Part shown: positions 3,882 to 54,014 of the stretch, piece by piece | Numbering within the stretch: the first letter of the stretch is position 1 | Layout: each line of letters opens with the position of its first letter | Assembly (NCBI GenBank): GCA_049274945.1 | Contig: JBASTP010000002.1 | Span: 1,125 to 65,124, forward strand | Direction of reading: 5' to 3' | Source of the DNA: Patescibacteria group bacterium | GTDB taxonomy: Bacteria > Patescibacteriota > UBA1384 > GWA2-35-9 > JBASTP01 | DNA: 64,000 nucleotides | Notes under the pieces: generated by a model | Told to the model about the DNA's origin: nothing | Seen by the model: only the letters and a program-made list of their open reading frames with translations | Databases searched by the model: none | Made by a program: the position numbers and the translations under genes

Positions 3882-4220
3882 ATGTCGGAGTGCATTTTTT
3901 GCAAAATCATTCGCCAAGAGATTCCGGCCAAAATCGTCTGGGAATCAGATGAAATTCTTGCCTTCGACGACGTGAATCCCCAGGCGCCGGTCCACGTGCT
4001 GATTGTGCCAAAGCAGCACACCGAAACGTATACGGTGTTTCTGGGCAAAACTGCGGCCGAGGTGGCAAAAATAAAGGGAGTAGGGGAGTCTGGCTATCGG
4101 CTGATTGTAAACCAAGGCAGCGATGCCGGCCAAGAAATTGCCCACCTCCACATGCATTTACTCGGCGGCAAAAAACTCGGCCCAATGATCGCTCAAAAGC
4201 TTAACGGCTCAAAGACTTAA
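3882..4220 (+). CDS. HIT family (histidine triad) hydrolase
   Basis: HLHMHLLGG histidine triad; start moved to ATG 3882 (MSECIFCKI). Confidence 0.85.
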   Translation: MSECIFCKIIRQEIPAKIVWESDEILAFDDVNPQAPVHVLIVPKQHTETYTVFLGKTAAEVAKIKGVGESGYRLIVNQGSDAGQEIAHLHMHLLGGKKLGPMIAQKLNGSKT

Positions 4221-4231
4221 TGACTTAATAT

Positions 4232-4483
4232 ATGGATCAACCAAAACTACTCGAAAAACAGGATAACACGCGGTTCGGCTACGATTACAAACGCGACGGC
4301 AGATCAAAACGGCCGGAGAGCTTTGAGGTGATGCTGCGCAAGTTCAACCGAGAGATCCAACAGATCGGGCTGCTTACCGAAGTCAAAAAGCGCAAATATT
4401 TTACTAAAGATATGTCGCGGACGATGCGCCGCCAGATTGCCAAGGTTAAATCAGCCCGGCGCAAAGTGAAACGGGGCTACTAG
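4232..4483 (+). CDS. rpsU: 30S ribosomal protein S21
   Basis: EVMLRKFNREIQQIGLLTEVKKRKYFTKDMSRTMRRQIAKVKSARRK, typical S21. Confidence 0.85.
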   Translation: MDQPKLLEKQDNTRFGYDYKRDGRSKRPESFEVMLRKFNREIQQIGLLTEVKKRKYFTKDMSRTMRRQIAKVKSARRKVKRGY

Positions 4484-4486
4484 GAA

Positions 4487-4930
4487 ATGGCGCTCCTAGA
4501 CACAATCGAGCACGATTTCCAGGAAGCGCTCAAAAATAAGGAAGCGGAGCGGCTTTCGGTTCTGCGATTAATTAAAACTGCCCTCACCAACAAAGAAAAA
4601 GAAAAGGGCGAGGCGCCGAGCGACGAAGCAGTCCTCCAAATTCTCAAACAGGAAGCAAAAAAACGCGATGAAGCCGCCAAGCTCTACGATGAGGCGGGTA
4701 AGACCGAGCTCGCACAAAAAGAGCGGCAGGAGCTAGAAATTATCAAAGTGTATGTACCAGCCGAGCTGCCGGACGAAGCAATCATCAAAGCAATCGAAGA
4801 AGTGAAGGCGACCCTTCGACAGAGCTCAGGGCAAGGCGAGTTCGGCCAGGTAATGGGGCAGGTGATGGCGAAATTGAAAGGCCAGGCAGACGGCTCTCGA
4901 GTGGCAGCATTGGTAAAAAAGTCGCTCTAG
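4487..4930 (+). CDS. GatB/YqeY domain protein
   Basis: Size and sequence pattern of YqeY family (LKNKEAERLSVLRLIKTAL...). Confidence 0.8.
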   Translation: MALLDTIEHDFQEALKNKEAERLSVLRLIKTALTNKEKEKGEAPSDEAVLQILKQEAKKRDEAAKLYDEAGKTELAQKERQELEIIKVYVPAELPDEAIIKAIEEVKATLRQSSGQGEFGQVMGQVMAKLKGQADGSRVAALVKKSL

Positions 4931-5911: not shown

Positions 5912-6757
5912 TTAGGTCCCGGGCTGTTCGCCCTGAGTTTCTACGGTGAGCCCTTTTGGGGCTTGAACAGGAAAGTGGAGTGTCTCGGGCCGAGCGAAGT
6001 CAAGGACCTGCCCTCGTTTCAGAAAACCCCTGAAACCATCCTCGCGCGCGTTCGGCAGTGGCCCTTCATTGAAGTGGTAGAGCCACAGCCTTGCCCGAAT
6101 CTCATCGGGGAGCGTCAGAAGCTGGCTGTAGTGGGCATGGACCCCAGACATGAACTTCGCGGTTTCAGCATCGTGGAACACGATGTCAGCTTGCCTATAG
6201 AAGTCCATAATCTGGTTCGGGGCAAACTGCGTATCACAAGTAAAGTAGATGCGCAGCTTGTCAGTTTCGAACACCAGGCCGTAGCAGGGCATCAGCTCGA
6301 ACCCGTCCATGACATGAATTGCCTGAACCGGCTGGAACTGAACACCCGCCCATTCGAAGGCCTTGTTCGGGCCGATTGGACGAACGTCGAAGTATGTCTC
6401 CAACGTCGTCCGTTTCTGCTGGATCGAGCGCATCGCGCCCGACAAGCCATTTTCCCAGAGAACATCGAGTACCTTCTGGGAAGCATACAGGCGCGGCTTC
6501 GGTAGCCTCGCAAAATACGTCGCGAATCCCAGATATTCGAGCCCCTGGTCGTGATCGCCGTGGGTATGACTCAAGTAGATGTCGGTAATGTCAGCCGGCT
6601 TCAGGCCGGCCTTGCGCATCGAGAAACGGATGTCAGAACCCGCATCGATGAGCAAACGGTGTCCGTTTTGGATCAGCATGAAGTTGGACTGAAAATTTTC
6701 TCCAACTCGCTTTCCAATGTAAAACGCGCTGCCGGAGCCTAACACGAGCATTTTCAT
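5912..6757 (-). CDS. MBL-fold metallo-hydrolase (RNase Z-like)
   Basis: HTHGDHDQG motif; start set at MKMLVLGSG with AAGGAA RBS (longer ORF to 6814 possible). Confidence 0.8.
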   Translation of the reverse strand: MKMLVLGSGSAFYIGKRVGENFQSNFMLIQNGHRLLIDAGSDIRFSMRKAGLKPADITDIYLSHTHGDHDQGLEYLGFATYFARLPKPRLYASQKVLDVLWENGLSGAMRSIQQKRTTLETYFDVRPIGPNKAFEWAGVQFQPVQAIHVMDGFELMPCYGLVFETDKLRIYFTCDTQFAPNQIMDFYRQADIVFHDAETAKFMSGVHAHYSQLLTLPDEIRARLWLYHFNEGPLPNAREDGFRGFLKRGQVLDFARPETLHFPVQAPKGLTVETQGEQPGT

Positions 6758-13726: not shown

Positions 13727-14182
13727 ATGATTTGCCCCAAATGTAAATCGGAACAGGTCTATGTCATCGACAGCCGGGAGATGGACGAGAAAACCATCCG
13801 CCGCCGGCGCGAGTGCGAGGAATGCAAGCAGCGATTTACCACCTTTGAGCGGATCGATCCGGTAAGTTTTGCAATCGTCAAGAAAGATGGCACGAGCGAA
13901 CCCTACGATCGCACCAAAATCGTGACCGGCATTAAGCGAGCGCTTGAAAAACGCCCGGTGAACGATGAAAGCATTGAAGCCATGGTAGACCGGATCGAGT
14001 GGAAGCTGGTTGAGAGCGGCGAGCAAGAGATTGCATCGAGCAAAATCGGCAACCTGGTGATCCGAGAGTTACGCGCCGTGGATGAGGTTGGCTACTTGCG
14101 GTTTGCTTCGGTTTACCGCGCCTTCCGGAGCCTCGAGGCATTTTCGAAAGAAATGAAACGATTTGAGAAAACGAAAGCATAA
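13727..14182 (+). CDS. nrdR: transcriptional repressor NrdR
   Basis: CPKC...CEEC zinc ribbon plus ATP-cone. Confidence 0.92.
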   Translation: MICPKCKSEQVYVIDSREMDEKTIRRRRECEECKQRFTTFERIDPVSFAIVKKDGTSEPYDRTKIVTGIKRALEKRPVNDESIEAMVDRIEWKLVESGEQEIASSKIGNLVIRELRAVDEVGYLRFASVYRAFRSLEAFSKEMKRFEKTKA

Positions 14183-14219
14183 CGTAATATATAACACTAG
14201 TAAGTTAGGGGGTAATTTC

Positions 14220-17200
14220 ATGGCAAAGAAGGGGAAAAGCTCGCAAGCGGAGCGGATCGAGTTACCAAAGGTCATAATTGACCTGGGCAGCAGTCGAAAC
14301 ACTAACGATAAGCGGTTTGATCTGGTTGCCGGGGTAGTCGCCAAGGAGCCTACCGGCAAAGGGTTGCAGTTTAACCGGGTATTTTCCAAAGCGGGGATCC
14401 ACCCGTTCGATGAAATTACCTGGGAAAAACGCGACGCCAGAATCATCGACGAGAAGGGTAAGGTAATGTTCGAGCAGCTCGGGGTTGAGGTGCCGGAGTT
14501 CTGGACCCAACTTGCCACCGACATTGCCACCTCAAAATACTTCCGCAAAAAAGGCCTGCCTACCCCCGAGGGCCGCGAGGTCTCGGCCAAACAGCTGATT
14601 ACCCGCGTTGCCCATTCTATCCGGAAAGCAGGGGAGAGCCTGGGCAGCTACTTTACAACCACCGACGACGCCGAGGTCTTTGAGGCAGAGTTAACGAGTC
14701 TGCTGATTAACCAACGAGTTGCCTTTAACTCACCTGTGTGGTTCAACTGCGGCCTCTACCAAACATATGGCATTGAAGGGAGCGGCGGCAACTGGTTCTG
14801 GAACCCCGAAACCCGCCAGGTGGAAGAAACCGCCAATGCCTACCAGTACCCCCAGTGCTCGGCGTGCTTTATCCAATCGGTCTCCGACGATCTCCGTTCG
14901 ATTTTTGAGCTCGTCAAAAACGAGGCGATGCTCTTTAAGTACGGCTCTGGCACCGGCACCAACTTTAGTAACCTCCGTTCCAAGGGCGAGGAACTCTCGG
15001 GTGGCGGCAAATCCTCGGGCGTGATGAGCTTTTTGAAGGTACTCGACGCCGGCGCCGGCTCGATCAAATCCGGCGGCACCACCCGGCGCGCCGCCAAGAT
15101 GGTGGTACTCGACATGGACCACCCCGAGATAGTTGATTTTATCGATTGGAAGGTCAAGGAAGAGGAAAAAGCGCGCCTGCTGATTGCCCACGGCGGCTAC
15201 CCGGCTGATTTTAACGGCGAGGCCTACCAAACCGTTTCCGGCCAGAACTCCAACAACTCGGTGCGCATTCCCGACGAGTTCATGAAAGCCTATCTCGACA
15301 ATAAGGAATGGGCCACCCGCTGGCGCACCGATGGCAATGTGGCCCAAACCTACCAAGCCAAAGAACTGATGGACCGAATTGCCCAGGCCGCCTGGCGCTC
15401 GGCTGACCCGGGCGTTCAGTTCGACACCACGATCCAGGAATGGAACCCGGTGGCCAACTCCGATCGCATCAACGCCACCAACCCGTGCTCTGAATTCGTG
15501 TTCATCGACGACACCGCCTGCAACCTGGCGTCGTTCAATCTGATGAAGTTTACGGCGCCCGACGGCAGCTTTAAGGTAGACGAGTTCCGCCACGCCGTCC
15601 GCATCCTGATTACCGCCATGGAAATCCTGGTGGATTTTGCGAGCTACCCGACTAAACAAATCGCCGAGCGCTCCCACCAATTCCGGCCGCTCGGCCTAGG
15701 CTACGCCAATTTGGGGACGCTCCTCATGATCAACGGCATTCCCTACGACAGCCCCGAGGGCCGCGCGTGGGCCGGGGCGATTACCGCTATTTTGCACTGC
15801 GATGCCTACGCCACGTCGGCCGAGCTCGCCAGTCAGGTGGGGCCGTTCGAAGCCTACCAAGCCAACCGCGAGCCGTTCCAAAAAGTGATCCACAAACACG
15901 CCGAAGCGGCCTACAGACTTGATGCCACGGCGTGCCCCAAGCCGCTCATCGAAGCAGCCCACCAGGCGGCCGACCAAATGGTGGCGCTCGGGCAGGGGCA
16001 CGGCTACCGCAACGCCCAGGTTACCAACATCGCGCCAACCGGCACAATCGCGCTTTTAATGGACTGCGACACCACCGGCGTTGAACCCGATTTTGCCCTC
16101 GTGAAGTACAAAAAGCTCGCCGGCGGCGGATTCTTTAAGATTATCAACCAGTCGGTGCCGCGGGCCCTGCGAAAACTGGGCTACAATGCCCGCGAGATCG
16201 ACGAGATTAACCGCTACATTGTTGGCTCCCAAACCCTCGACGGCGTGCCCCACATCAACCGAGAAACCCTCAAAGCCAAAGGGCTGACCGACGAGGAGGT
16301 GGACAGCGTCAACCGGGTGCTGCCCTCGGTGTTCGATTTTTCAAGCGCCTTTGGCGAGTGGACGCTCGGCCAAGCCTGCCTTACCCGGCTCGGTATCAAG
16401 GGCGCCAATGTACTCCTAGAACTTGGCTTCACCGCACAGCAGATCGAGCAGGCCGGCACCTTTACCTGTGGCATGATGACGATCGAAGGCGCCCCCGCCG
16501 TGAAGCCAGCGCACCTGCCGGTGTTCGACTGTGCCAACAAAAACGGCCGCCACGGCGTGCGCTATATTCAAGCAATGGGCCACGTGCGCATGATGGCCGC
16601 GGTCCAGCCGTTCATTTCCGGCGCGATCAGCAAAACCGTAAATCTGCCCGAGGACGCTACGGTGGAGGATATTAAACAAGTTTATATGGAATCGTGGAAA
16701 CAGGGTTTGAAAGCCCTGTCGGTGTATCGCGACAACTCCAAAATGAGCCAACCGCTCTCCACGGTATCCGAGGCGCGGAAGGAGCGCGATAACGATAGTA
16801 GCCAGGGATCAGGAGTCAGTAGCCAGGAGACACCAGACGCTCAGTTCCGCCCCCAGCGCAGGCGGCTGCCGGACGAACGCAAATCAATCACCCACAAGTT
16901 CACGATCGCCGGCCACGACGGCTACCTTACCATAGGCCTGTTTGAGGATGGCTCGCCGGGCGAGATTTTCATCCGCATGGCGAAGGAAGGCTCAACCATT
17001 GCGGGCCTCGTGGATAGCTTTGCCATTGCCGTTTCCATGGGGTTGCAGTACGGCGTGCCCCTGGACACGATTGTTTCCAAGTTCGCCCACGTGCGGTTCG
17101 ATCCATCGGGGTTCACCACCCACCCGAAAATCAGGATCGCCAAATCACTGATTGACTACATTGCCCGCTACCTGGCCTACAAATTTCTGCCCAAGGAACG

Positions 17201-17462
17201 CTGGCACGAGGTGGGGTTGAATGGCGACGATGCCAGTAGCCAGGCATCAGTAGCCAGTAGCCAGGAGATAGGTAAACCAGTGGATCAACCGACCATTTTT
17301 GAGGCGCCACAAAAACCAGAACTAACCACCGGGCCAACCGCGCAAACCAAACTCGATCCAATAGGGGACTCGCCGAGCTGTGGCGAATGCGGCGGCATGA
17401 TGACGCGCTCCGGCAGCTGCTACAAGTGTATGAACTGCGGCTCAACGAGTGGATGCTCCTAG
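14220..17462 (+). CDS. nrdJ: class II (adenosylcobalamin-dependent) ribonucleotide reductase
   Basis: NPCSEF active-site region, C-terminal CGECGG...CYKCMNCG zinc ribbon; RBS AGGGGGT before ATG 14220; two Ser/Gln-rich low-complexity inserts. Confidence 0.9.
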   Translation: MAKKGKSSQAERIELPKVIIDLGSSRNTNDKRFDLVAGVVAKEPTGKGLQFNRVFSKAGIHPFDEITWEKRDARIIDEKGKVMFEQLGVEVPEFWTQLATDIATSKYFRKKGLPTPEGREVSAKQLITRVAHSIRKAGESLGSYFTTTDDAEVFEAELTSLLINQRVAFNSPVWFNCGLYQTYGIEGSGGNWFWNPETRQVEETANAYQYPQCSACFIQSVSDDLRSIFELVKNEAMLFKYGSGTGTNFSNLRSKGEELSGGGKSSGVMSFLKVLDAGAGSIKSGGTTRRAAKMVVLDMDHPEIVDFIDWKVKEEEKARLLIAHGGYPADFNGEAYQTVSGQNSNNSVRIPDEFMKAYLDNKEWATRWRTDGNVAQTYQAKELMDRIAQAAWRSADPGVQFDTTIQEWNPVANSDRINATNPCSEFVFIDDTACNLASFNLMKFTAPDGSFKVDEFRHAVRILITAMEILVDFASYPTKQIAERSHQFRPLGLGYANLGTLLMINGIPYDSPEGRAWAGAITAILHCDAYATSAELASQVGPFEAYQANREPFQKVIHKHAEAAYRLDATACPKPLIEAAHQAADQMVALGQGHGYRNAQVTNIAPTGTIALLMDCDTTGVEPDFALVKYKKLAGGGFFKIINQSVPRALRKLGYNAREIDEINRYIVGSQTLDGVPHINRETLKAKGLTDEEVDSVNRVLPSVFDFSSAFGEWTLGQACLTRLGIKGANVLLELGFTAQQIEQAGTFTCGMMTIEGAPAVKPAHLPVFDCANKNGRHGVRYIQAMGHVRMMAAVQPFISGAISKTVNLPEDATVEDIKQVYMESWKQGLKALSVYRDNSKMSQPLSTVSEARKERDNDSSQGSGVSSQETPDAQFRPQRRRLPDERKSITHKFTIAGHDGYLTIGLFEDGSPGEIFIRMAKEGSTIAGLVDSFAIAVSMGLQYGVPLDTIVSKFAHVRFDPSGFTTHPKIRIAKSLIDYIARYLAYKFLPKERWHEVGLNGDDASSQASVASSQEIGKPVDQPTIFEAPQKPELTTGPTAQTKLDPIGDSPSCGECGGMMTRSGSCYKCMNCGSTSGCS

Positions 17463-17592: not shown

Positions 17593-18033
17593 ATGCGCAA
17601 ATCCCAAAAGATTGTTTTAATTTCGGTTGTGGTGCTCGTGTCGCTGGGCCTCGTGAGCAACTTTTCGGGTTTCGCAAGCAATTCAGGTGCCAGGCGGCAG
17701 CAACCCCGGAACGTCAAACCTAGAAACGATATTCAGCGCCGAGAGCCAACCAGCGCCGATCTTAAAGTTACCCGTGCACCCGATAACAAAACGGTTAACT
17801 ACCAGGGCTTCGAGGGTAAAACCGCGCTCGAGTTGCTCCGGCTCGTTGCCCACGTAGAGACCAAAAACTTCGGCGAGCTGGGCGATATGGTAACGGAAAT
17901 CGACGGTATTACCGCTGACAAAGGCAACTTTTGGGCGCTCTACGTGAACGGCAAGCAATCTGAAGTCGGGGCAAGTAGTTACAAAACCAAGCCAGGGGAG
18001 AGCGTGGAGTGGCGGTATGAGGAAATCAAATGA
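17593..18033 (+). CDS. membrane-anchored DUF4430 domain protein (transcobalamin-like fold; putative B12 binding)
   Basis: N-terminal TM; GNFWALYVNGKQSEVGASSYKTKPGESVEWRY matches DUF4430 pattern. Confidence 0.65.
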   Translation: MRKSQKIVLISVVVLVSLGLVSNFSGFASNSGARRQQPRNVKPRNDIQRREPTSADLKVTRAPDNKTVNYQGFEGKTALELLRLVAHVETKNFGELGDMVTEIDGITADKGNFWALYVNGKQSEVGASSYKTKPGESVEWRYEEIK

Positions 18034-18038
18034 TGACA

Positions 18039-18122
18039 CAACCACTGATATCTGATCCACTGATAACCACAGATTCTTGTGGCCTATCAGTGATTATCTG
18101 TGGCATAAATCTGTGGTTGTAG
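18039..18122. repeat. intergenic palindromic repeat, copy 3
   Basis: caaccactgatatctgatccactgataaccacagat...tgattatctgtggcataaatctgtggttg. Confidence 0.8.
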
Positions 18123-18131
18123 CCCTTCATT

Positions 18132-18635
18132 ATGACGTATCTCCTCATCTTCCTCGGTCTCGCCGCGCGCCTGCTGCCTCACTCCGCCAATTTCACCCCG
18201 GTGGGCGCGATTGGGCTTTTTGGCGGCGCCCAGCTGCCCAAACGGTTGGCGCTTGCCCTGCCGCTCATTGCGGTGTTCATTTCTGATCTTATCATCGGCT
18301 TTTATACCTGGCAGGTGATGCTATCGGTATACCTTGGTTTCCTGGTGTATGGCCTAGCTGGCCTGTGGATCCGGCAGGACTATTCGATCAAGCGCATGGT
18401 GGCTGGCACGCTCGGCGCCTCGGTATTTTTTTTCCTGCTTACCAACGCCGCGGTTTGGGCCTTTACGCCGCTCTACCCCCACACCCTTACTGGCCTTAGC
18501 GAGAGCTACCTGGCCGCGCTGCCATTTTTTCGCAACTCACTGCTGGGTGATTTCTTCTATACCGGAGCATTCTTCGGGGTCTACGAGTTGACACGATTTT
18601 GGGTTGCGGATAGAGTAAGTTTTGCAAGGAGGTGA
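18132..18635 (+). CDS. polytopic membrane protein, putative ECF-transporter S (substrate-capture) component
   Basis: 5-6 TM helices, LLPHSANFTPVGAIGLFGG N-terminal motif common in ECF S components. Confidence 0.5.
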   Translation: MTYLLIFLGLAARLLPHSANFTPVGAIGLFGGAQLPKRLALALPLIAVFISDLIIGFYTWQVMLSVYLGFLVYGLAGLWIRQDYSIKRMVAGTLGASVFFFLLTNAAVWAFTPLYPHTLTGLSESYLAALPFFRNSLLGDFFYTGAFFGVYELTRFWVADRVSFARR

Positions 18636-18636
18636 C

Positions 18637-18945
18637 ATGGAACAAAAAGATTTAGACCAAATCCGCCAAGTAGTCAAAGAAGAAGTGGTGATCGCGGTTC
18701 AACAAGAGACAAACTCTCTAAATCAAAAAATCGTACAAAATCACCAAGAAGTCATCAAAAAAATTGAGACAGTCAAACAGGAAACAGGCTACCTGAATCA
18801 GAAAATCGAACGCAATCATCGAGAAGTAATACATAAAATTGACCAACTGCGTACCATGGAATCCGAGGATATTGCTCCGCTCTATCAAGCTACAGACAAT
18901 CACGAAAAACGAATCATTAGACTAGAAAAAGCCATCGCCAAATAG
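18637..18945 (+). CDS. coiled-coil hypothetical protein with internal 23-aa tandem duplication
   Basis: AGGAGGTG RBS; NSLNQKIVQNHQEVIKKIETVKQE / GYLNQKIERNHREVIHKIDQLRT. Confidence 0.5.
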   Translation: MEQKDLDQIRQVVKEEVVIAVQQETNSLNQKIVQNHQEVIKKIETVKQETGYLNQKIERNHREVIHKIDQLRTMESEDIAPLYQATDNHEKRIIRLEKAIAK

Positions 18946-18947
18946 CC

Positions 18948-19205
18948 ATGATCGAATTAATTGATTTCTACGCCGATTGGTGCCACCCCTGCCACCTGAT
19001 GCACCCGATTATCGAGGAGATTGAAAAGGAGCACGCGGGCAAGCTGACCGTTACCAAAATTGATGTGGACAAGGAGCCGGAGCGGGCGGCCGAGTTCAAC
19101 GTACTCTCGATTCCAACCTATGTAATCAAAAAAGACGGCAAGGTGGTGGAACAGTTCTCGGGTGCGGTATCCAAGGAAGTGCTCGTGGGTAAGCTTGGGC
19201 TCTAA
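18948..19205 (+). CDS. trxA: thioredoxin (CHPC active site)
   Basis: DFYADWCHPCHLM, thioredoxin fold length. Confidence 0.88.
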   Translation: MIELIDFYADWCHPCHLMHPIIEEIEKEHAGKLTVTKIDVDKEPERAAEFNVLSIPTYVIKKDGKVVEQFSGAVSKEVLVGKLGL

Positions 19206-19782
19206 CCCTGGTACGCCGCATTTGACAGGGAAGTATTGACCTCTATACAATTAGAGCGGCTAAGCGCTTATCTCTGCTTTGCGCTTGCCCCCGAGGGGGC
19301 TCGACTTCCGTCAGCCCCCTCGGGATGGGGTTCTTGAAAAAGTTGATTGAGAAAGGAGGAATGCCCGCATGATAAGGAAGTTCTTCGCCAAGAAGAGCAG
19401 CAATGGCTAAGTGCGACCGCAAGTGCGCATAAGCCGAAAGGGCGGCCGCGCTGAGCCAGAAAAACTCCTGGCCCACCCAAGCGCGCCGCCCTGCACTCAT
19501 TTTTCATTCCTCAATTGATCAGTTTTGTGTGCGTTGTGGCACTCGAGGGATAGCGGCTGCAACCAGCCACGCGTGCACAGGGAACCCGCCAGGCCGATGG
19601 TCCCATCCTCACCGTTGGCCTGGCCATACAATAACCGTACTCTACAGGGTGTGGAGTACGTTACCTTTTCCATTTTTGCAGTTGGCGACGCCACGGACCG
19701 CCCCTCAGCCTCCCCAAGGTCCCACGCCATCTGTACCAGGGGGTGTGGATACCGAACGCGCAGCCCCACCCCGTGGCATCCC

Positions 19783-19836
19783 TCCGCCGTCCGTTTGAGC
19801 AACCTATCGCTTGAATTGGACGGCGTTTTTTTGTGC
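19783..19836 (+). terminator. plus-strand intrinsic terminator (gccgtcc...ggacggc + TTTTTTT)
   Basis: Stem with long loop followed by T7 run. Confidence 0.55.
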
Positions 19837-19840
19837 CAAT

Positions 19841-19900
19841 AAAAAAAAGCCCCGAGATACCGAGCGGCACAGGTGGGGCCTATGCTTGTATCAGTATATC
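19841..19900 (-). terminator. minus-strand intrinsic terminator (gccccgatata...tatctcggggc + UUUUUUUU)
   Basis: On plus strand: A8 run then gccccgagata...tatatcggggc. Confidence 0.65.
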
Positions 19901-20411
19901 GGGGCGAAATGAGCGGGGATGGTTGAAAAACGGGCCGGGTCGCTGGGAGGAAGAGGCTGGTCAACGCCCAGCGAACCCGGACACCGCTGCCGAAACAGAA
20001 GTGCGGGCGGTGGCACCCGCCGACAGGCTTGCGCCCATCGTAGAGCACTCAAACGAGGAGAGGATTTGTGCGGTGCTTGAAGGCCCCTTTCAGGCCCCAG
20101 GTCAAAAAACATCCTTGCGGACGCACCTCTCGGGGGATTTTTCTTACCCCCTACCTGACTTGATTGCTGGATAGCGGCTCGCGGTCAAATTCCGCAAAGC
20201 CGCCATCCGTGCAGCCGCTCACTACAGATCTCTTCTCATACTAAGTCTGACCGCCCAGACTATAACCCTCCTGCCTTGCGGCAGGGTGCGCAGGCAGCAT
20301 GAGAGGCGTAGATTGAGCGCCACCAATTAGCAGGTTGTTCTCGTTCAAGCAAGAATGATCGTACTACGGCCATTTGACAGCTGTCAAGCCCTTGCACTAC
20401 GCTCAAGGTGT

Positions 20412-21689
20412 ATGAAGTTCCTCCACTTTGCCGACATTCACTTTGGCATGGAAAATTACGGCCGCACCGATAGCGCCAGCGGCTTAAGTTCTCGGCTCAC
20501 TGATTGGCAGCGCTCCTATCAATTTTTGATCGATACCGCCCTGAAAGAACAAGTTGATTTCGTGATTTTTTCCGGCGATGCCTACAAAACTCGCGATCCG
20601 GCGCCCACCTACCAGCGCGCCTTTTGCCAAGGCGTCCGCCAGCTGGCGGACGCAGGGATACCGGTGGTCATGATCACCGGCAACCACGATATTCCGAATG
20701 CCCTGGGCAAAGCCACCAGTCTCGATATTTTCGCCGCGCTCAAGGTGCCCCATGTATTGCTGGCCACTGAACCCATACTCCTGGAACTCGATTTGAGCAA
20801 GCACAACCCGGCCAAGCAGGGGATTGTGCAACTGGCGCTCCTACCCTGGCTCACCAAATCAAAGTTCCTGACCGATGAAAAATTGAAACTGATGACCAGC
20901 GAGCAGTTAAGCGGCTATTTTCAGGCAGCAGTAGGCCGCTACATCAAGGATTTTTCAAGCCAGCTCAACCCGCACCACCCGGCAATTTTGGTGGCCCATG
21001 GTTCGGTGGAGGGCGCGGTATTCGGCTCGGAACGGACTATTATGCTCGGCTCGGATATTGTGATCCCGGCCCAGGCGCTGGCGGAGTCGAAATTTGACTA
21101 CGTGGCGCTCGGCCATATTCACAAACACCAGGTGGTGCTCACGCAGCCACTCACCGTATATGCTGGATCGATCGAACGGATTGATTTTGGCGAAGCGAGC
21201 GACGACAAGGGGTTTGTGATTGGGAACATTAGTAGCACAGTAGCCAGTAGCGCGGTAGCGCAGGGGAAAGTTAGTTGGAAATTTGTGAGAGGGCCGGCAC
21301 GACCCTTCACGGTCGTTCAAGTTAAAAGTGAAAAGTTTACCGTGAAAAATTTGGAGCCTACCGAAGTAATACTCCAAGAAATCAGAAAACACGATCTCAA
21401 AGGGGCGGTGGTAAAGGTGGTGATTGAGTGCGACGAGCAGACGGCGCCCCAGATTCTAGAAAACCCCATTCGCCAGCAACTCGAGGTACAAGGCGTGGAC
21501 TTTATTGCCTCAATCCAAAAAGAGGTGGCGGTGGCTGGACGAACAGAAACCGAACTAGGCTACTCTGATTCGCTCGTGGCTGCCTCGCCGCTGGAGCTCC
21601 TCGAAAAGTTTTTTGAGAGCAAAAACACGCCCAAAAAAGAGGTAGCGCGGTTGCGCCAAATGGCGGAACAACTGCTGGCAGAACGTTAA
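20412..21689 (+). CDS. sbcD: DNA repair exonuclease SbcD (Mre11-like)
   Basis: LHFADIHFG, GDAYK, ITGNHD phosphoesterase motifs; start at MKFLHF. Confidence 0.85.
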   Translation: MKFLHFADIHFGMENYGRTDSASGLSSRLTDWQRSYQFLIDTALKEQVDFVIFSGDAYKTRDPAPTYQRAFCQGVRQLADAGIPVVMITGNHDIPNALGKATSLDIFAALKVPHVLLATEPILLELDLSKHNPAKQGIVQLALLPWLTKSKFLTDEKLKLMTSEQLSGYFQAAVGRYIKDFSSQLNPHHPAILVAHGSVEGAVFGSERTIMLGSDIVIPAQALAESKFDYVALGHIHKHQVVLTQPLTVYAGSIERIDFGEASDDKGFVIGNISSTVASSAVAQGKVSWKFVRGPARPFTVVQVKSEKFTVKNLEPTEVILQEIRKHDLKGAVVKVVIECDEQTAPQILENPIRQQLEVQGVDFIASIQKEVAVAGRTETELGYSDSLVAASPLELLEKFFESKNTPKKEVARLRQMAEQLLAER

Positions 21690-21735: not shown

Positions 21736-22158
21736 TTACTTTTTTACTTTTTTGGGTTCGAACTTGAGCGAGCACGAGTTAATGCAGTACCTCATTCCCG
21801 AAGCCGGCTTGCCGTCGGACATACTCGAGGGGCCGTCGGGGAAAACGTGGCCTAAATGCGCGCCGCAGTGTTTGCACATTACCTCGATGCGCGTCATGCC
21901 GTGGGAGGTATCGGTGGCGGTGGTGATGTTCTCGGCGACCGCCGGATCGGTAAAGCTGGGCCAACCGGTGCCGGATTCGAATTTGGCGTCGGAGGCAAAC
22001 AAGGGAGCGTTACACACCAAACAATGGTACATGCCATCATCGTGATTGTTCCAATATTTGCCGGAAAACGCCCCTTCGGTACCTTTTTCCTGGGTTACCC
22101 GATACTCGTCCGGGGATAGTTTCTTTTTGAGGTCTGCTTTGTTTAATTTTGTGGTCAT
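21736..22158 (-). CDS. msrB: peptide methionine sulfoxide reductase MsrB
   Basis: CLVCNAPLF...[12 protein letters not shown]. Confidence 0.92.
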
Positions 22159-22194
22159 TTTTCTTCTATATTACTGACTTATTATTAATTAGCG

Positions 22195-22340
22195 ACGGGT
22201 GGCGAGAGGTGCGAGGGGACGGGCGGGTTGCTAGCCTGCCTGCCGGTAGGCAGGCGCCACAGGAAGCCCGTTATGGCCGACGCGCTCCTGTAGAGCGCAC
22301 GCCCGAGGCGGTACCTGAGCCAGGACCCGCCGCTAAAAAA
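22195..22340. repeat. GC-rich modular repeat family, copy B (with 22-bp palindromic insertion tgcctgccggtaggcagg)
   Basis: gtggcgagaggt...gggcgggttgctagc[insert]gccacaggaag...tagagcgcacgcccgaggcggtacctgagccaggacccg. Confidence 0.65.
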
Positions 22341-22350
22341 TACATTGCTA

Positions 22351-22851
22351 CTAAATGTGGCAGGTTGCCTTAATGCCGCGCTTGGCGTAATACTGTTGGT
22401 GATAATCTTCGGCTTCGAAAAACCCCTTGGCCGGCACGATTTGGGTAACAATTTTTTGAGTCAACTCTTTCTGGTACGCGTCGCGGGATTTTTCGGCAGC
22501 GTTCTTTTGTTCGGCATTTTTGTAAAAAATCACCGAACGATACTGGCTGCCAACGTCAACCCCTTGGCGATTAGGGGTAGTAGCGTTATGATTTTTCCAG
22601 AAGATATTCAGGAGCGCTTCGTAGGAAATTATTTTGGGATCATAGGTCACTTCCACCGCCTCGGCGTGGCCCGTGGCATCAGCGCAGACTTGCTCGTAAC
22701 TCGGATTTTTTACGCTGCCGCCGCTGTAGCCAACCCGCGTTGACTTGACCCCTTTTTGCATGCGGAAAATCTCCTCCACACCCCAAAAACACCCGGCGGC
22801 AAAGGTGGCGGTAGAAAGCTTTCCAAGTGGCTGTTTTGGCATAGTACTCAT
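22351..22851 (-). CDS. msrA: peptide methionine sulfoxide reductase MsrA
   Basis: ATFAAGCFWGVE active site. Confidence 0.92.
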   Translation of the reverse strand: MSTMPKQPLGKLSTATFAAGCFWGVEEIFRMQKGVKSTRVGYSGGSVKNPSYEQVCADATGHAEAVEVTYDPKIISYEALLNIFWKNHNATTPNRQGVDVGSQYRSVIFYKNAEQKNAAEKSRDAYQKELTQKIVTQIVPAKGFFEAEDYHQQYYAKRGIKATCHI

Positions 22852-43219: not shown

Positions 43220-43525
43220 TCACATTCCCGGCAGGTTCACGCCCAAATCTTTCATCACGCCCTTGGTCTTCTCCGCTGCCATGGTTTGAGCTTGAGAAAT
43301 CGCTTCTGCCATCACCTTAATGAGCGTTTTTTCTAGCCCATCTTTGTTGTCGGGCCGCAAGGCGCTTGCGTCAATCTTGAGATCCACAATATGCTGCTCG
43401 CCGTTGATCACTACAGCCACCGTGCCATCGTCAGAACGCGCTTCGATCTCCGTTTCCTTGAGCTCTTTCTGAATGTCTTTTGCTTTTTTCTGCAGTTCGT
43501 AAAGTTGTTTGAATTTGTCGAGCAT
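43220..43525 (-). CDS. ybaB: YbaB/EbfC nucleoid-associated protein
   Basis: Family pattern, ~100 aa. Confidence 0.88.
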   Translation of the reverse strand: MLDKFKQLYELQKKAKDIQKELKETEIEARSDDGTVAVVINGEQHIVDLKIDASALRPDNKDGLEKTLIKVMAEAISQAQTMAAEKTKGVMKDLGVNLPGM

Positions 43526-43541
43526 AATGTTAACCTCTAAA

Positions 43542-43634
43542 GGAAGTTATACAACCACTGATATTTAATCCACTGATAGACACTGATTTAGGTATCTTAT
43601 CTGTGATTATCTGTGGCATAAATCTGTGGTTGTA
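43542..43634. repeat. intergenic palindromic repeat, copy 7
   Basis: ggaagttatacaaccactgatatttaatccactgatagacactgatt...ttatctgtggcataaatctgtggttg. Confidence 0.85.
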
Positions 43635-43647
43635 GTCCTACCTTATT

Positions 43648-44613
43648 TTATTTAGGTTGCTGTTTTAAATATTCTTGCACAAATTGGTCGAGTCCGCCAC
43701 CCAGCACGCTTGCCGTATCGGCCGTTTCATACCCGGTGCGGTGGTCTTTGACGAGTTGGTACGGCTGCAGCACGTAGCTGCGAATTTGGTTACCCCACTC
43801 GACCGATAATTTCTCGCCGCGCAATTCATCGACTTTTTCTTTGTGCTTTTGCTGCAGTAACGTCGCGAGCTTGGCTTTGATGACTTTCATGGCGATTTCT
43901 CTGTTTTGCGACTGTGATCGCTCGTTCTGGATCGCCACGGTAATGCCGGTTGGCACATGGGTTACCCGAACCGCGGTCTCCAACTTGTTGACATTCTGGC
44001 CGCCGTGGCCGCCCGCGCGGTAGGTATCAATTTTGAGGTCTTGCGCCGGAATATCTGCCACGGTTTGCGATTCAATTTCCGGCACGATTTCAACGAGCGA
44101 AAAACTGGTATGTCGCGCTTTATCGGCGTCGTAGGGCGAGATCCGCACCAGCCGGTGCACGCCAGCTTCGGATTTAAGCAGGCCATAGGCGCTGCCCCCG
44201 CTCACTTTGGCCTGGGCTGATTTTATGCCTGCTTCCTGGCCGGCCGACTCTTCGAGCAATTGGAATGTGAGCCCTTTGCGCTCGCTGTAGCGGCGGTACA
44301 TTTCAAGGAGCATGCTGGCCCAATCTTGGGCTTCGGTGCCGCCGGCGCCGGCGTGGATTCCCAGGTAGGCGGGCTTGTCGTCGTAGGGGCCGGAAAACTG
44401 GGCAAGCTGCGTAAGCGGCGCGAGGTCGGCATCGGTTTGCGCCGCGTCAAATTGCCCAATTAAGCCCTGGAGCTGGCTGTACTGGCTCGAAACCGCCCGC
44501 GCATTTTCTTGATCGCGCCAAAAATCAGGCGCAGCCATCGCGGTTTCAAACTCGCGCACCTGTGCCCGCTTTTCGTCGATTTTGAGCAATGCTCCAATTT
44601 CTACCTTATTCAT
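43648..44613 (-). CDS. prfB: peptide chain release factor 2 (no programmed +1 frameshift apparent)
   Basis: GGQ motif ([11 protein letters not shown]), SPY(F) motif; ATG 44613 (ORF track begins at TTG). Confidence 0.85.
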
Positions 44614-48488: not shown

Positions 48489-48743
48489 GATTGACTCCTT
48501 TCCGCCTCTACCAAGTTGGAGGGTTGCTTGGATCGGGCGTTTGGTTTTCAACGTACTGCGCTTCACCATTGACGGCGCAGGTCCGGCCAGGACAAGGGAC
48601 GAGGACTGCTCCATGGTGTTTAATGGAACGCTCGCCCAGATCCTAGCCAGGCCCACGCAAACAAAGGGTTGCTAACCCCCTCCTTTATCGATCCAGATTG
48701 TCGGTTCCAGTATACCTTACAGTCAGTCAGAAGTCAAGATCTG

Positions 48744-48830
48744 GGACCACTGATCTTGTCCACAGATAAACACTGATCCTATCTGTGATTATCAGTGGTA
48801 TAAATCTGTGGTTGTGGTCCTACCTTATGA
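48744..48830. repeat. intergenic palindromic repeat, copy 10
   Basis: gggaccactgatcttgtccacagataaacactgat...atctgtgattatcagtggtataaatctgtggttg. Confidence 0.8.
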
Positions 48831-50091
48831 AGCGCACCCCATCTGGAGTATCCTCGAGTGCAATCCCCTGCTTTGCCAGCTCGTGGCGAATCTGGTCGGC
48901 CTGCGCAAACTTGCCGGATCTGCGGAGCGCTTCGCGTTTTTTGAGCAAGCGCCGCTGCGGTGCCGACAGTTTAACGTTTAAGGGTTTAAGGTTTAGGCCG
49001 AGCACCGAATCAAAGTGGAGCCAAAGTGCCGGATCGTTGGCAGTGTGGAGCAGCGCAAGCGCTTTGGGAATGCTAAGATCATCGGCTAACGCCGCCTCGA
49101 TTTCCCCCTGGACTTTTTCCTGTGCTACTGTGCTACTAACTACTGCACTACTGCGCTGCAAGGTTTGCCGAATGTGGCGCAGCGCTTCTTCGGCCGCGGT
49201 GAGCGATTCCCACGTGAAATTCATTTTTTCGCGGTAGTGGACGGATAGGAAAAGATAGCGCAGGGCAAGCGGATCAAAGCCCTTGTCGACCACATCGCGG
49301 AGCGTAACGTAGTTGCCCTCGGATTTGGCCATTTTTTTACCATCCACCAGCAAGTGCTCGTTGTGCAAAAAATACCGCGCCAATGGCGTGCCGTACGCGC
49401 CAGCCGATTGGGCGATCTCGTTTTCGTGGTGGGGGAAAATCAGGTCCACGCCGCCGGTGTGAATATCGAACGGCTGACCCAGGTATTTGCGGCTCATGGC
49501 GGAACATTCGATATGCCACCCCGGGCGATCCCCTTCCTTTTTCCACAACGCAAAATCCGCGGGAGATTGCTTGTCGTAAGCATCAACATCCACCCGCGCG
49601 CCGGGCATGAGTTGCCGTTTCTTAAGCCCCGAGAGTTTGCCGTAGGCTTTATATTTTGCAATCGCAAAGTAAGTGCCATCCTCAGCGTCGTACGCCAATC
49701 CCCTGGCCTTTAACTTCGCGATGATCACGCGCATTTCCTTAATGTGATCGGTGGCACGGGGGTACGCCGAAGCAGGTGTAAGGTTTAAGAGTTTAAGGTC
49801 TAAGAGGAACAGGTCAGTGTACTTTTTGGTAAACGCTTTGAGGGTGGTTTTGGCGCGGGCCGCGGCGGCAATGGTTTTGTCGTCGATATCGGTAATGTTC
49901 ATCACCCACTTGACGCGGTAACCAAAAAACTTGAGGGTGCGCACGAGCCCATCGGCAAACACGTAGCTGCGCAAGTTGCCAATGTGGGCATAGTCGTAGA
50001 CCGTGGGGCCGCAGGTGTAGACGCCCACCGTTTTGTCGTGGAGTGGCCCGAACAGCTCGGTGCGGTGAGTAAGGGTGTTATAAAATTTCAC
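48820..50091 (-). CDS. cysS: cysteinyl-tRNA synthetase
   Basis: CGPTVYDYAHIGN (HIGH), KMAKSEGN (KMSKS). Confidence 0.92.
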   Translation of the reverse strand: MKFYNTLTHRTELFGPLHDKTVGVYTCGPTVYDYAHIGNLRSYVFADGLVRTLKFFGYRVKWVMNITDIDDKTIAAAARAKTTLKAFTKKYTDLFLLDLKLLNLTPASAYPRATDHIKEMRVIIAKLKARGLAYDAEDGTYFAIAKYKAYGKLSGLKKRQLMPGARVDVDAYDKQSPADFALWKKEGDRPGWHIECSAMSRKYLGQPFDIHTGGVDLIFPHHENEIAQSAGAYGTPLARYFLHNEHLLVDGKKMAKSEGNYVTLRDVVDKGFDPLALRYLFLSVHYREKMNFTWESLTAAEEALRHIRQTLQRSSAVVSSTVAQEKVQGEIEAALADDLSIPKALALLHTANDPALWLHFDSVLGLNLKPLNVKLSAPQRRLLKKREALRRSGKFAQADQIRHELAKQGIALEDTPDGVRFIR

Positions 50092-53233: not shown

Positions 53234-53878
53234 TTAGTCTTTTTCCCAGAGTACCTCTTCAACTTGTTTATCCGCCTCGGCGATTGAATCGAGCTGTTTT
53301 GGAGTGAGATACTCGGGTAGTGGCGCGGTTTCGTCGAACCGCACCAGATCAGGGTTGGTAACCCCGTTCTTTTTTAAGATTTCAGTTGCCGAGAGCTTGG
53401 CGGTCTGATTGCTCTCGTAGCCGAGTTTAGCTACCAACTCGCTCGTTGCCGCAGCGGTATCGCCCTCGAGCACAAGGTATGCCGGAACATTCGGGTACTG
53501 ATCAAGTTCGACTGCCACTGCCGGAAATTGAAACACGGTGCGCTTTTTCTCCTGGTAACGGAACGGGTAAAAGCCAGCCAGCCGCAGCAGCTCGCACATT
53601 TTATCGAATGCTTCTATGGTAAGTTCCGTTTCCTGGAGTAATTTAGTCGGTCCCACTTGGGGCCCGCTGGCATGCTTGATATTTAGGTACGCCCGGCCAC
53701 CGAGCTCTCGTACCCGAATGGGGACCCCCTGTTCCCTGAGCTTGAGTTTGGGGTGGTCGAATAACACCGTTTTTAGTAGCCCCGGGCCAAAACTGATTGT
53801 GCCGCCCAACTTTTGGAGTTTGGCAACGAGCTCCGCTGGATTAACATTTAAAATCTTGACCTCGTATTCCTGCTTCAT
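53234..53878 (-). CDS. CYTH-domain protein (triphosphate tunnel metalloenzyme-like)
   Basis: N-terminal MKQEYEVKIL (ExExK) CYTH signature. Confidence 0.65.
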   Translation of the reverse strand: MKQEYEVKILNVNPAELVAKLQKLGGTISFGPGLLKTVLFDHPKLKLREQGVPIRVRELGGRAYLNIKHASGPQVGPTKLLQETELTIEAFDKMCELLRLAGFYPFRYQEKKRTVFQFPAVAVELDQYPNVPAYLVLEGDTAAATSELVAKLGYESNQTAKLSATEILKKNGVTNPDLVRFDETAPLPEYLTPKQLDSIAEADKQVEEVLWEKD

Positions 53879-53914
53879 TCGCTTCCAAGGTAGCATAATT
53901 ATCGCAAATGTCAA

Positions 53915-53993
53915 AGCTCAAAATTCAAAACTGCAACTCAAATCTTAAAGCTTTTAGTTTTACGTTGTAGTTTTGACATTTGAGTTTTAAGTT
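53915..53993. promoter_or_regulatory. divergent intergenic region with ~80 bp imperfect palindrome built from CTCAAAA/TTTTGAG units
   Basis: gctcaaaattcaaaactgcaactcaaatcttaaagc / gctttaagatttgagttgcagttttgaattttgagc-like arms. Confidence 0.4.
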
Positions 53994-54014
53994 TTGAGTT
54001 ATATAATAAATCCA

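Follow-up and report, generated by a model that had tools for sequence, protein, structure and literature searches.

New bacterial RNAs of several hundred nucleotides (nt) with a conserved architecture are rare, and the earlier cases (RNase P RNA, OLE, ROOL, GOLLD, and HEARO/omega RNA) are ribozymes, ribonucleoprotein cores, guide RNAs, or self-assembling cages. Here, we describe a region of about 1.2 kilobases (kb) that lies between the thioredoxin gene (trx) and sbcD in the genome of a Patescibacteria group bacterium. The window that we analyzed is a stretch of 64,000 nt from contig JBASTP010000002.1 (assembly GCA_049274945.1), and the gap between trx and sbcD spans positions 19206-20411 of this window. 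We consider it likely that the gap is non-coding and that a unit on its minus strand (19841..20350, about 510 nt) is a genuine gene for a structured non-coding RNA (ncRNA) of a new family. Going by the five or six sequences that support it, all from one narrow clade of Patescibacteria, this “minus RNA” would be a new family of a kind of feature that is already known. A second unit, on the plus strand (19222-19833), appears to be a real transcription unit of uncertain nature, and we are less certain about it than about the minus unit.

The closest described relatives in kind are OLE, ROOL, GOLLD, and raiA. Like the minus RNA, these are stand-alone RNAs of a few hundred nucleotides with their own promoter and terminator, and their neighboring genes give no clue to their function. 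They also have many helices that are capped by GNRA or UUCG loops, long-range pairings, and variable peripheral insertions, all of which we predict for the minus RNA. But these RNAs are found in Bacillota or in phages, whereas the minus RNA is found in Patescibacteria and has no covariance-model match to any of them. It is also known from about six sequences in one clade, it always lies between trx and sbcD, and it has no recognized associated protein genes. RNase P RNA (types A and B) is in the same size class and also has a multi-helix core, and the candidate long-range pseudoknot of the minus RNA, which would join two conserved single-stranded segments, is reminiscent of P4 or P6 of RNase P RNA. 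However, on neither strand do the Rfam models recognize any of the conserved regions of RNase P RNA (CR-I to CR-V), and related genomes do not have the minus RNA in this slot.

A gap without coding signal

The thioredoxin gene occupies 18948-19205. sbcD most likely starts with the ATG at 20412 (MKFLHFADIHFG): from there, the protein is a 100% full-length match to the SbcD at NCBI from a metagenome-assembled genome of a “Patescibacteria group bacterium.” The start of the program-listed open reading frame (ORF) for sbcD, at 20355, is over-extended, and the gap is slightly longer than the 1.1 kb given in a first-pass annotation, which a model had made from the sequence alone.

That annotation saw no credible protein-coding gene in the gap and dismissed a 183-amino-acid ORF on the minus strand, and our analyses agree on both counts. 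Codon-usage log-odds (trained on 23 long genes from the window) were flat or negative in each of the six frames between 19225 and 20350, and they ranged from +0.25 to +0.46 in the flanking trx and sbcD. Among the 10 longest ORFs in the gap, including the 183-amino-acid one, no match to Pfam was better than E = 0.08. A BLASTN comparison of the gap to phage and plasmid collections gave no match, and no repeat or paralog of it was found elsewhere in the 64-kb window.

We obtained close relatives from a large protein collection. Their SbcD proteins are 94, 85, 84, 82, 74, 64, 61, and 60% identical to that of the window, and one of them is annotated as Candidatus Berkelbacteria. Two further contigs were anchored on trx. 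(Scans anchored on SbcD in the GTDB species-representative genomes and in the metagenomes of the Joint Genome Institute found only relatives at about 40% identity, except for locus L081, which starts inside sbcD, and gave no usable upstream region.) Relatives keep the gene order DUF4430, DUF6580, small protein, trx, gap, sbcD, and the arrangement of trx, gap, and sbcD is retained where SbcD is 74-94% identical. In L161, L162, and L164, where both of the flanking genes are entire, the gap has no called genes and is about 1.1-1.5 kb long. The contigs of L163 and L168 begin inside or just before trx, and about 0.5 kb of gap is seen in each.

The first-pass annotation had proposed comparing the region with relatives. 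In a translated comparison of all stop-to-stop segments, similarity appeared in every frame, with the frame switching along the alignment, and no reading frame was found to be conserved across the gap among the relatives. The promoter, the terminator, and the helices of the minus unit, which are described below, are kept. For annotation, the lesson is to label the region as a candidate ncRNA instead of leaving it blank or filling it with the spurious 183-amino-acid ORF.

Promoter, terminators, and predicted fold of the minus-strand RNA

We infer that the minus RNA is transcribed from a sigma-70-type promoter at 20387-20358 on the minus strand (TTGACA, an 18-nt spacer, and TACGAT). The -10 box (20358..20363) is TACGAT in the window and TACAAT in L161 and L164, and it is also kept in L162, L163, and L168. 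The first-pass annotation had suggested a minus-strand transcript of about 450 nt that starts near 20340. The promoter that we found supports this suggestion, with a probable start near 20350 (7-8 nt downstream of the -10 box) and a length of about 510 nt. The transcript would stop first at a terminator-like 3' end at 19925..19980, which has a long hairpin (CCGGGUUCGCUGGG ... CCCAGCGACCCGG) and then CCCGUUUUUC (U5), and which is kept in L161, L162, and L168. It would stop next at a strong intrinsic terminator (19841..19905) with a 57-nt hairpin (19849-19905) and U8 (19841-19848). With the alternative 3' end near 19925, after the first hairpin and U5, the length of the RNA would thus be about 430-510 nt. 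The strong terminator is present in L161, L162, L163, L168, L164, and L174, with changed stem sequences. The counts of these signals alone are not significant (three promoters versus 1.7 expected, and five terminators versus 3.5 expected); the promoters and terminators are above chance because they are conserved at the same places in relatives.

The -35 hexamer of the minus promoter is part of a perfect 14-base-pair (bp) palindrome, TTGACAGCTGTCAA (20374..20387, both strands), which occurs once in the window. Read on the plus strand, the palindrome has the -35 hexamer of sbcD (20374-20379), and read on the minus strand, it has that of the RNA (20387-20382); the two hexamers are back to back and 2 bp apart. 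It is kept in L161, L162, L163, L168, and L175, and its form in L164 is TTGACAACTTGTCAA. In L175, which does not have the minus RNA, the palindrome is present and the minus -10 box is missing. Because the palindrome persists in L175 without the RNA gene, it belongs primarily to the sbcD promoter. On the plus strand, the -10-like sequence of sbcD (TACGCT, 20398-20403) and its start codon at 20412 (together 20398..20414) are only about 9 nt apart, so the sbcD mRNA would be nearly leaderless.

This arrangement is like that of divergent promoter pairs that share an operator: here too, -35 hexamers on opposite strands lie in a perfect palindrome, of 14 bp, but a regulator is not known here. The palindrome could be an operator. 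Transcription of the minus RNA is probably coupled to that of sbcD via the shared palindrome. The 2-bp distance between the -35 hexamers suggests that binding of RNA polymerase at the two promoters may be mutually exclusive or jointly controlled.

The minus RNA is predicted to fold into a 5' domain of about 300 nt (20051..20346, minus strand, as are all of the coordinates in this section from here on). This domain is closed by helix P1 and holds helices P2, P3, P4, P6 (with a GCAA loop), P7, and P8, as well as variable hairpins, and several of its hairpins are capped by GNRA or UUCG loops. P1, in which GAACGAG (20340-20346) pairs with CUCGUUU (20051-20057), connects the 5' end with a segment that lies some 190-290 nt further downstream. 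The strands of P2 are CCUGC and GCAGG. P3 (20313-20318 with 20217-20222) and P4 (20298-20303 with 20235-20240) lie in the region 20217..20318 and enclose two hairpins, P6 (20270-20285, capped by GCAA or GAAA) and P7 (20244-20261). P8 has a UUCG cap in three members of the family. Independent minimum free energy folds of the homologs have P1, P2, P3, P4, P6, P7, and P8 in common.

Whole-length alignment with MAFFT and RNAalifold misaligned the modules of the region, and we used E-INS-i and per-helix pair tables instead. (A MAFFT sub-alignment for a covariance model was also out of register in two of the five sequences.) Compensatory changes are clearest in P3, whose strands are GCUCA/UGAGC in the window, ACUUAC/GUAAGU in L161, GUUCAU/AUGAAU in L162, and AAUACA/UGUAUU in L163. 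Across five sequences, both sides of P3 changed at five of six positions, and 29 of 30 cells are canonical pairs. When we slid the partner strand by 1-3 nt, just 7-14 of 30 cells were canonical, and pairing strands from different sequences gave 74 of 120. P4 has changes on both sides at three of six positions, again with 29 of 30 canonical cells, and in P1 all 35 cells are canonical and two of the seven positions covary (five sequences in each case). A matrix of duplex energies between the 5' and 3' segments of different homologs gave no discrimination.

The strand on which tetraloops occur also indicates a minus-strand RNA. In six sequences, we counted 18 hairpins with GNRA or UNCG tetraloops on the sense strand (14 GNRA and 4 UNCG) and none on the antisense strand. 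The folding z-score of the minus unit is -5.1 for the sense strand and -3.5 for the antisense strand. Among 50 control windows, the mean was -1.1 and the minimum was -4.8, and the sense strands of both units are lower than all of these. The folding z-scores back a structured RNA; they are supportive but not decisive. The control windows with the lowest z-scores (-4.3 to -4.8, with 25 shuffles each) are 6001-6505(-), 48501-49005(-), 53501-54005(+), and 43501-44005(-), which may be other structured elements, or noise.

Two hairpins follow the 5' domain. One is capped by GCAA (20021-20040) and precedes the other, a conserved hairpin, GCGGGUGCCACCGCCCGC (20003..20020), whose CCACC loop is complementary to a single-stranded UUGGUGG within the 5' domain (20320..20326). 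These are the candidate 3' and 5' strands of a pseudoknot. The GGUGG core of the 5' strand is unchanged in six of six sequences, and the bases on its 5' side vary (ACUGGUGG in L168 and AAUGGUGG in L164). A sixth pair would be C-G in the window and L164 and G-C in L162. This complementarity suggests a long-range pseudoknot, in which the CCACC loop probably pairs back to UUGGUGG.

It might be that the act of transcription matters here and the RNA does not: promoter competition at the palindrome would tune sbcD, and the terminators would insulate trx and sbcD from read-through. The -35 hexamers that are back to back and just 2 bp apart fit this idea, as do the tandem terminators on both strands and the plus unit, whose signals are kept while its body is poorly conserved. 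For the plus unit, this explanation is plausible. But P1, P3, and P4 covary far from the promoter and the terminators, the GNRA and UUCG loops are strand-specific, and an insulator needs no conserved 300-nt folded domain. We therefore consider it unlikely to explain the locus.

Overall, the minus unit has the properties of a stand-alone ncRNA gene: its promoter and terminator are conserved, it has no conserved frame, and its helices have compensatory changes. Where one or two structured ncRNA genes had been proposed from the sequence, we find good evidence for one, given the promoter, terminator, covarying helices, and strand-specific loops of the minus unit; the plus unit is not clearly structured.

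Known RNA families and relatives of the minus RNA

We used cmscan to compare the region to the 4,227 families in Rfam 15, with the gathering thresholds for the 64-kb window and with a permissive cutoff (E <= 10) for both strands of 19000-20600. With the gathering thresholds, there was no match in the whole window. On either strand of 19000-20600, the permissive search found only an Esr41 look-alike at the plus terminator, which at E = 7 is meaningless. ARAGORN found no tRNA and no transfer-messenger RNA (tmRNA) in the window. Eight related loci, scanned against Rfam at E <= 1, had no match in the slot between trx and sbcD. (Outside of the slot, L166 had matches to a cobalamin riboswitch and to sX12, the latter a chance look-alike with E = 0.84.)

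To the extent that models of sequence and structure can test it, this excludes the known identities that we considered. Neither RNase P RNA (RNaseP_bact_a/b and related models) nor signal recognition particle (SRP) RNA (4.5S or long SRP) has a covariance-model match in the window or in the eight related loci, and for tmRNA, both ARAGORN and Rfam came up empty in the window. 6S RNA has no Rfam match either, and it is a rod of about 180-200 nt with a central bubble, versus a multi-branch fold of about 510 nt for the minus RNA. OLE, ROOL, GOLLD, HEARO, and raiA had no Rfam match in the gathering or the E-value mode. The first-pass annotation had suggested RNase P RNA, tmRNA, 6S, or SRP-class RNAs on the basis of size, and this part of it does not hold. 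It had also allowed that the RNAs might be divergent or novel, and the minus unit has no match among the 4,227 families. Literature searches found no account of a structured RNA of this kind in Patescibacteria or Berkelbacteria.

A divergent copy of one of the housekeeping RNAs (RNase P RNA, tmRNA, 6S, or SRP) would have roughly the right size in the case of RNase P RNA or tmRNA, and no such RNA was found elsewhere in the 64-kb window. Also, CPR (candidate phyla radiation) bacteria often have aberrant RNAs. Nevertheless, we consider this explanation extremely improbable. Besides the empty searches of the window, of the 1.6 kb around the gap on either strand, and of the eight related loci, the minus RNA is missing at the locus in L175 and L166, which would be unexpected if it were essential (although a copy elsewhere is possible), and 510 nt is far above the length of 6S or SRP RNA. 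A cis-regulatory leader or riboswitch is not supported either. In every homolog, the terminators of the minus RNA face trx or the plus unit, with no regulated ORF downstream. Similarly, the terminator of the plus unit faces the minus unit.

Alignments show that the gap is a mosaic of two modules and that the plus and minus units were gained or lost independently among the relatives. The window, L161, and L162 have both units. In L174, the plus unit is present together with at least the minus-unit terminator, and L175 has the plus unit only. In L163 and L168, there is only the minus unit, and its terminator comes directly after the stop codon of trx. L164 has the minus unit and about 480 nt of other sequence before sbcD, and L166 has a gene for 84 amino acids in place of the units. 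A profile of the minus unit, searched with nhmmer, recovered L161, L162, L163, and L168, all at E <= 4e-81, and in the roughly 2 Mb of loci that we fetched, it found nothing outside of the close clade. Three conserved 16-18-mers had 70 matches in IMG/VR, all due to chance. The minus unit of L164 is beyond the reach of nhmmer, and its link by BLAST is a single 25-nt block at the hairpin at 20003-20020. Its layout is like that of the window: the palindrome of the promoter, a closure like P1 (GGACAUUG/CAAUGCCC), a hairpin and then the one of the pseudoknot, and a terminator are all present, and it is a probable distant homolog.

We noticed several other elements in this slot. L161 has an AT-rich insert of 165 nt (4138-4304) between the promoter palindrome and sbcD. 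The insert of about 480 nt in L164 (1657-2130) is GC-rich and non-coding. The 84-amino-acid gene of L166 is on the minus strand (4641-4895). Upstream of sbcD in L165 (1350-1700), whose SbcD is 64% identical, a unit of about 310 nt carries a TTGACA...TGTCAA element, a minus-strand terminator, and two GGUGGCAC motifs. The homology of this unit to the RNA of the window could not be established.

Alternatively, the gap could be decaying DNA that is left over from lost genes or a mobile element, with signals that persist by inertia. The slot is indeed variable (the gene in L166 and the extra insertions in L161 and L164), and its two units are present or absent independently. But no frame-consistent similarity to proteins was found, there are no repeats or paralogs in the window and no phage or plasmid matches, and the helices are maintained by compensatory changes. 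Also, the minus unit is retained down to about 74-82% identity of SbcD, and CPR genomes are generally compact. We consider decay to be very unlikely.

Several points weigh against a new family of structured RNA. There are just five clear homologous sequences, which include two close pairs (window/L161 and L162/L168). The registers of the helices were placed by hand in these five sequences, which precluded formal covariation statistics (R-scape), and whole-RNA alignments with MAFFT and RNAalifold gave only weak covariation terms. The folding z-scores are only slightly past the tail of the control windows and so are mildly discriminating. L164 is tied to the family by its architecture and one 25-nt block, with no link from nhmmer. 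The minus RNA is absent at the locus in the related L175 and L166, so it must be dispensable or replaceable. And the plus unit has no tetraloop signature and a body that can barely be aligned; its signals could largely be terminators of the trx operon.

What might the minus RNA do? As there is no gene downstream of it on the minus strand, we infer that it is a folded RNA that works in trans, and as some relatives do not have it, it is not essential everywhere. It might be a protein-binding scaffold or a ribozyme-type RNA that acts in trans, but this is a tentative idea. Just as tentatively, it might found an undescribed class in the CPR, namely a compact, pseudoknotted trans-acting ribozyme or ribonucleoprotein core of about 500 nt, which may be tied functionally to the flanking genes for SbcCD (DNA repair) or for thioredoxin and the class II ribonucleotide reductase (redox and deoxynucleotide supply). 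The genomes of CPR bacteria (Patescibacteria) are tiny and compact, with little spare DNA. That a structured RNA gene of 0.5 kb is kept in such a genome suggests a function that is worth finding, and covariance-model searches of groundwater metagenomes could take the minus RNA as a concrete target.

The plus-strand unit and neighboring genes

The promoter of the plus unit (19222..19251) comes directly after the stop codon of trx and matches the consensus at 11 of 12 positions: TTGACA (19222-19227), an 18-nt spacer, and TACAAT (19246-19251). The first-pass annotation had noticed this promoter, with its start one base off, at 19223, and with a 17-nt spacer. It is kept in L161, L162, L174, and L175, or five loci with the window. 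Next come a Shine-Dalgarno sequence (AAGGAGG, 19353-19359) and an ORF of 13 codons (19369-19410) whose product would be MIRKFFAKKSSNG. A Shine-Dalgarno sequence and an ORF of 9-20 codons that starts with M(I/L)R(K/R/N)(F/L)(F/L) are present in the window, L161 (MLRNLFAINRTKKAAKKRFG), L162 (MIRRFFVIA), and L175 (MLRKFLVVTGAT), and are not present in the plus unit of L174.

Three terminator-like hairpins follow, all on the plus strand. The first (19439..19508) has AGGGCGGCCGCGCU ... AGCGCGCCGCCCU and then GCACUCAUUUUUC, and its CCCGCACUCAUUUU tail is kept in L161 and L162. The second (19636..19675) has CGUACUCUACA-GGG-UGUGGAGUACG and then UUACCUUUUCC; in its place, L161 and L162 have a hairpin of other sequence with the same GUUACUUUUUU tail. 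The last is an intrinsic terminator (19784..19833; CCGCCGUCC ... GGACGGCG and U7), with its arms at 19784-19792 (CCGCCGTCC) and 19818-25 (GGACGGCG) and T7 after them, and it is kept in L161, L162, and L174. This terminator and the minus-strand one at 19849-19905 with its U8 are the convergent pair that was seen in the first pass; both exist, a few bases away from where they had been placed. A perfect 12-bp hairpin that it had reported at 19296-19332 also exists, with a shift of 6-8 bases, at 19290-19324. L175 has three terminator-like hairpins of its own, which we read from its sequence and which cannot be aligned with those of the window.

Between these signals, the body of the plus unit evolves fast and can barely be aligned. 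No GNRA or UNCG loops were found on its sense strand. Its folding z-score is -6.2 for the sense strand, a value due mostly to the long terminator hairpins, and -3.8 for the antisense strand. Judging from these features, the plus unit is most likely a fast-evolving transcript with a small ORF or leader, or else a small RNA (sRNA), and it may also stop transcripts that read through from the trx operon.

In leader-peptide attenuators and sRNAs with small ORFs, as in the plus unit, a promoter precedes a strong ribosome-binding site with a very short ORF, and an intrinsic terminator comes after them. The plus unit might thus be a micropeptide gene, or an attenuator in which the position of the ribosome on the ORF decides whether transcription stops at 19439-19508. 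In four loci, the Shine-Dalgarno sequence, the start codon, and the N-terminus of the peptide are kept, and the ORF is directly followed by a terminator-like hairpin, as this explanation would predict. However, unlike in the known attenuators, there is no downstream protein gene to regulate, there are two extra terminator-like hairpins, and the peptide is conserved only in its first six residues, with neither its length nor its C-terminus conserved. Also, L174 has a plus unit without the ORF, and no alternative antiterminator pairing was found, although no systematic search was made. We consider a micropeptide or attenuator to be unlikely.

The thioredoxin upstream of the gap (18948-19205) is very short, at 85 amino acids, and lacks the usual N-terminal strand, and it has WCHPC as its active site in place of the canonical WCGPC. 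Between DUF6580 and trx, 18622-18945 encodes a protein of 102-107 amino acids that has no Pfam match, looks like a coiled coil, and has repeated “...NQKI..NH.EVI.KI” segments. At this place, L161 and L162 have a gene without a Pfam match that is alike in size and position, and L164, L174, and L175 do not have one.

In the Berkelbacteria relative L162, the class II ribonucleotide reductase (1-2162; 1,282 amino acids) has an intein, with matches to Intein_splicing and LAGLIDADG_3. The copy in the window (14163-17462; 1,099 amino acids) has no intein domains. The cobalamin riboswitch of L166 (3149-3272, 44 bits) is upstream of DUF4430-DUF6580. In the window, no cobalamin riboswitch was detected upstream of DUF4430-DUF6580 (17593-18635) or of the class II, B12-dependent ribonucleotide reductase. 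On the other side of the gap, both the window and L162 have msrB and msrA (minus strand, 21736-22851 in the window) between sbcD and sbcC. L165, L166, and L167 are more distant, and there sbcC comes directly after sbcD; the neighborhood is prone to rearrangement.

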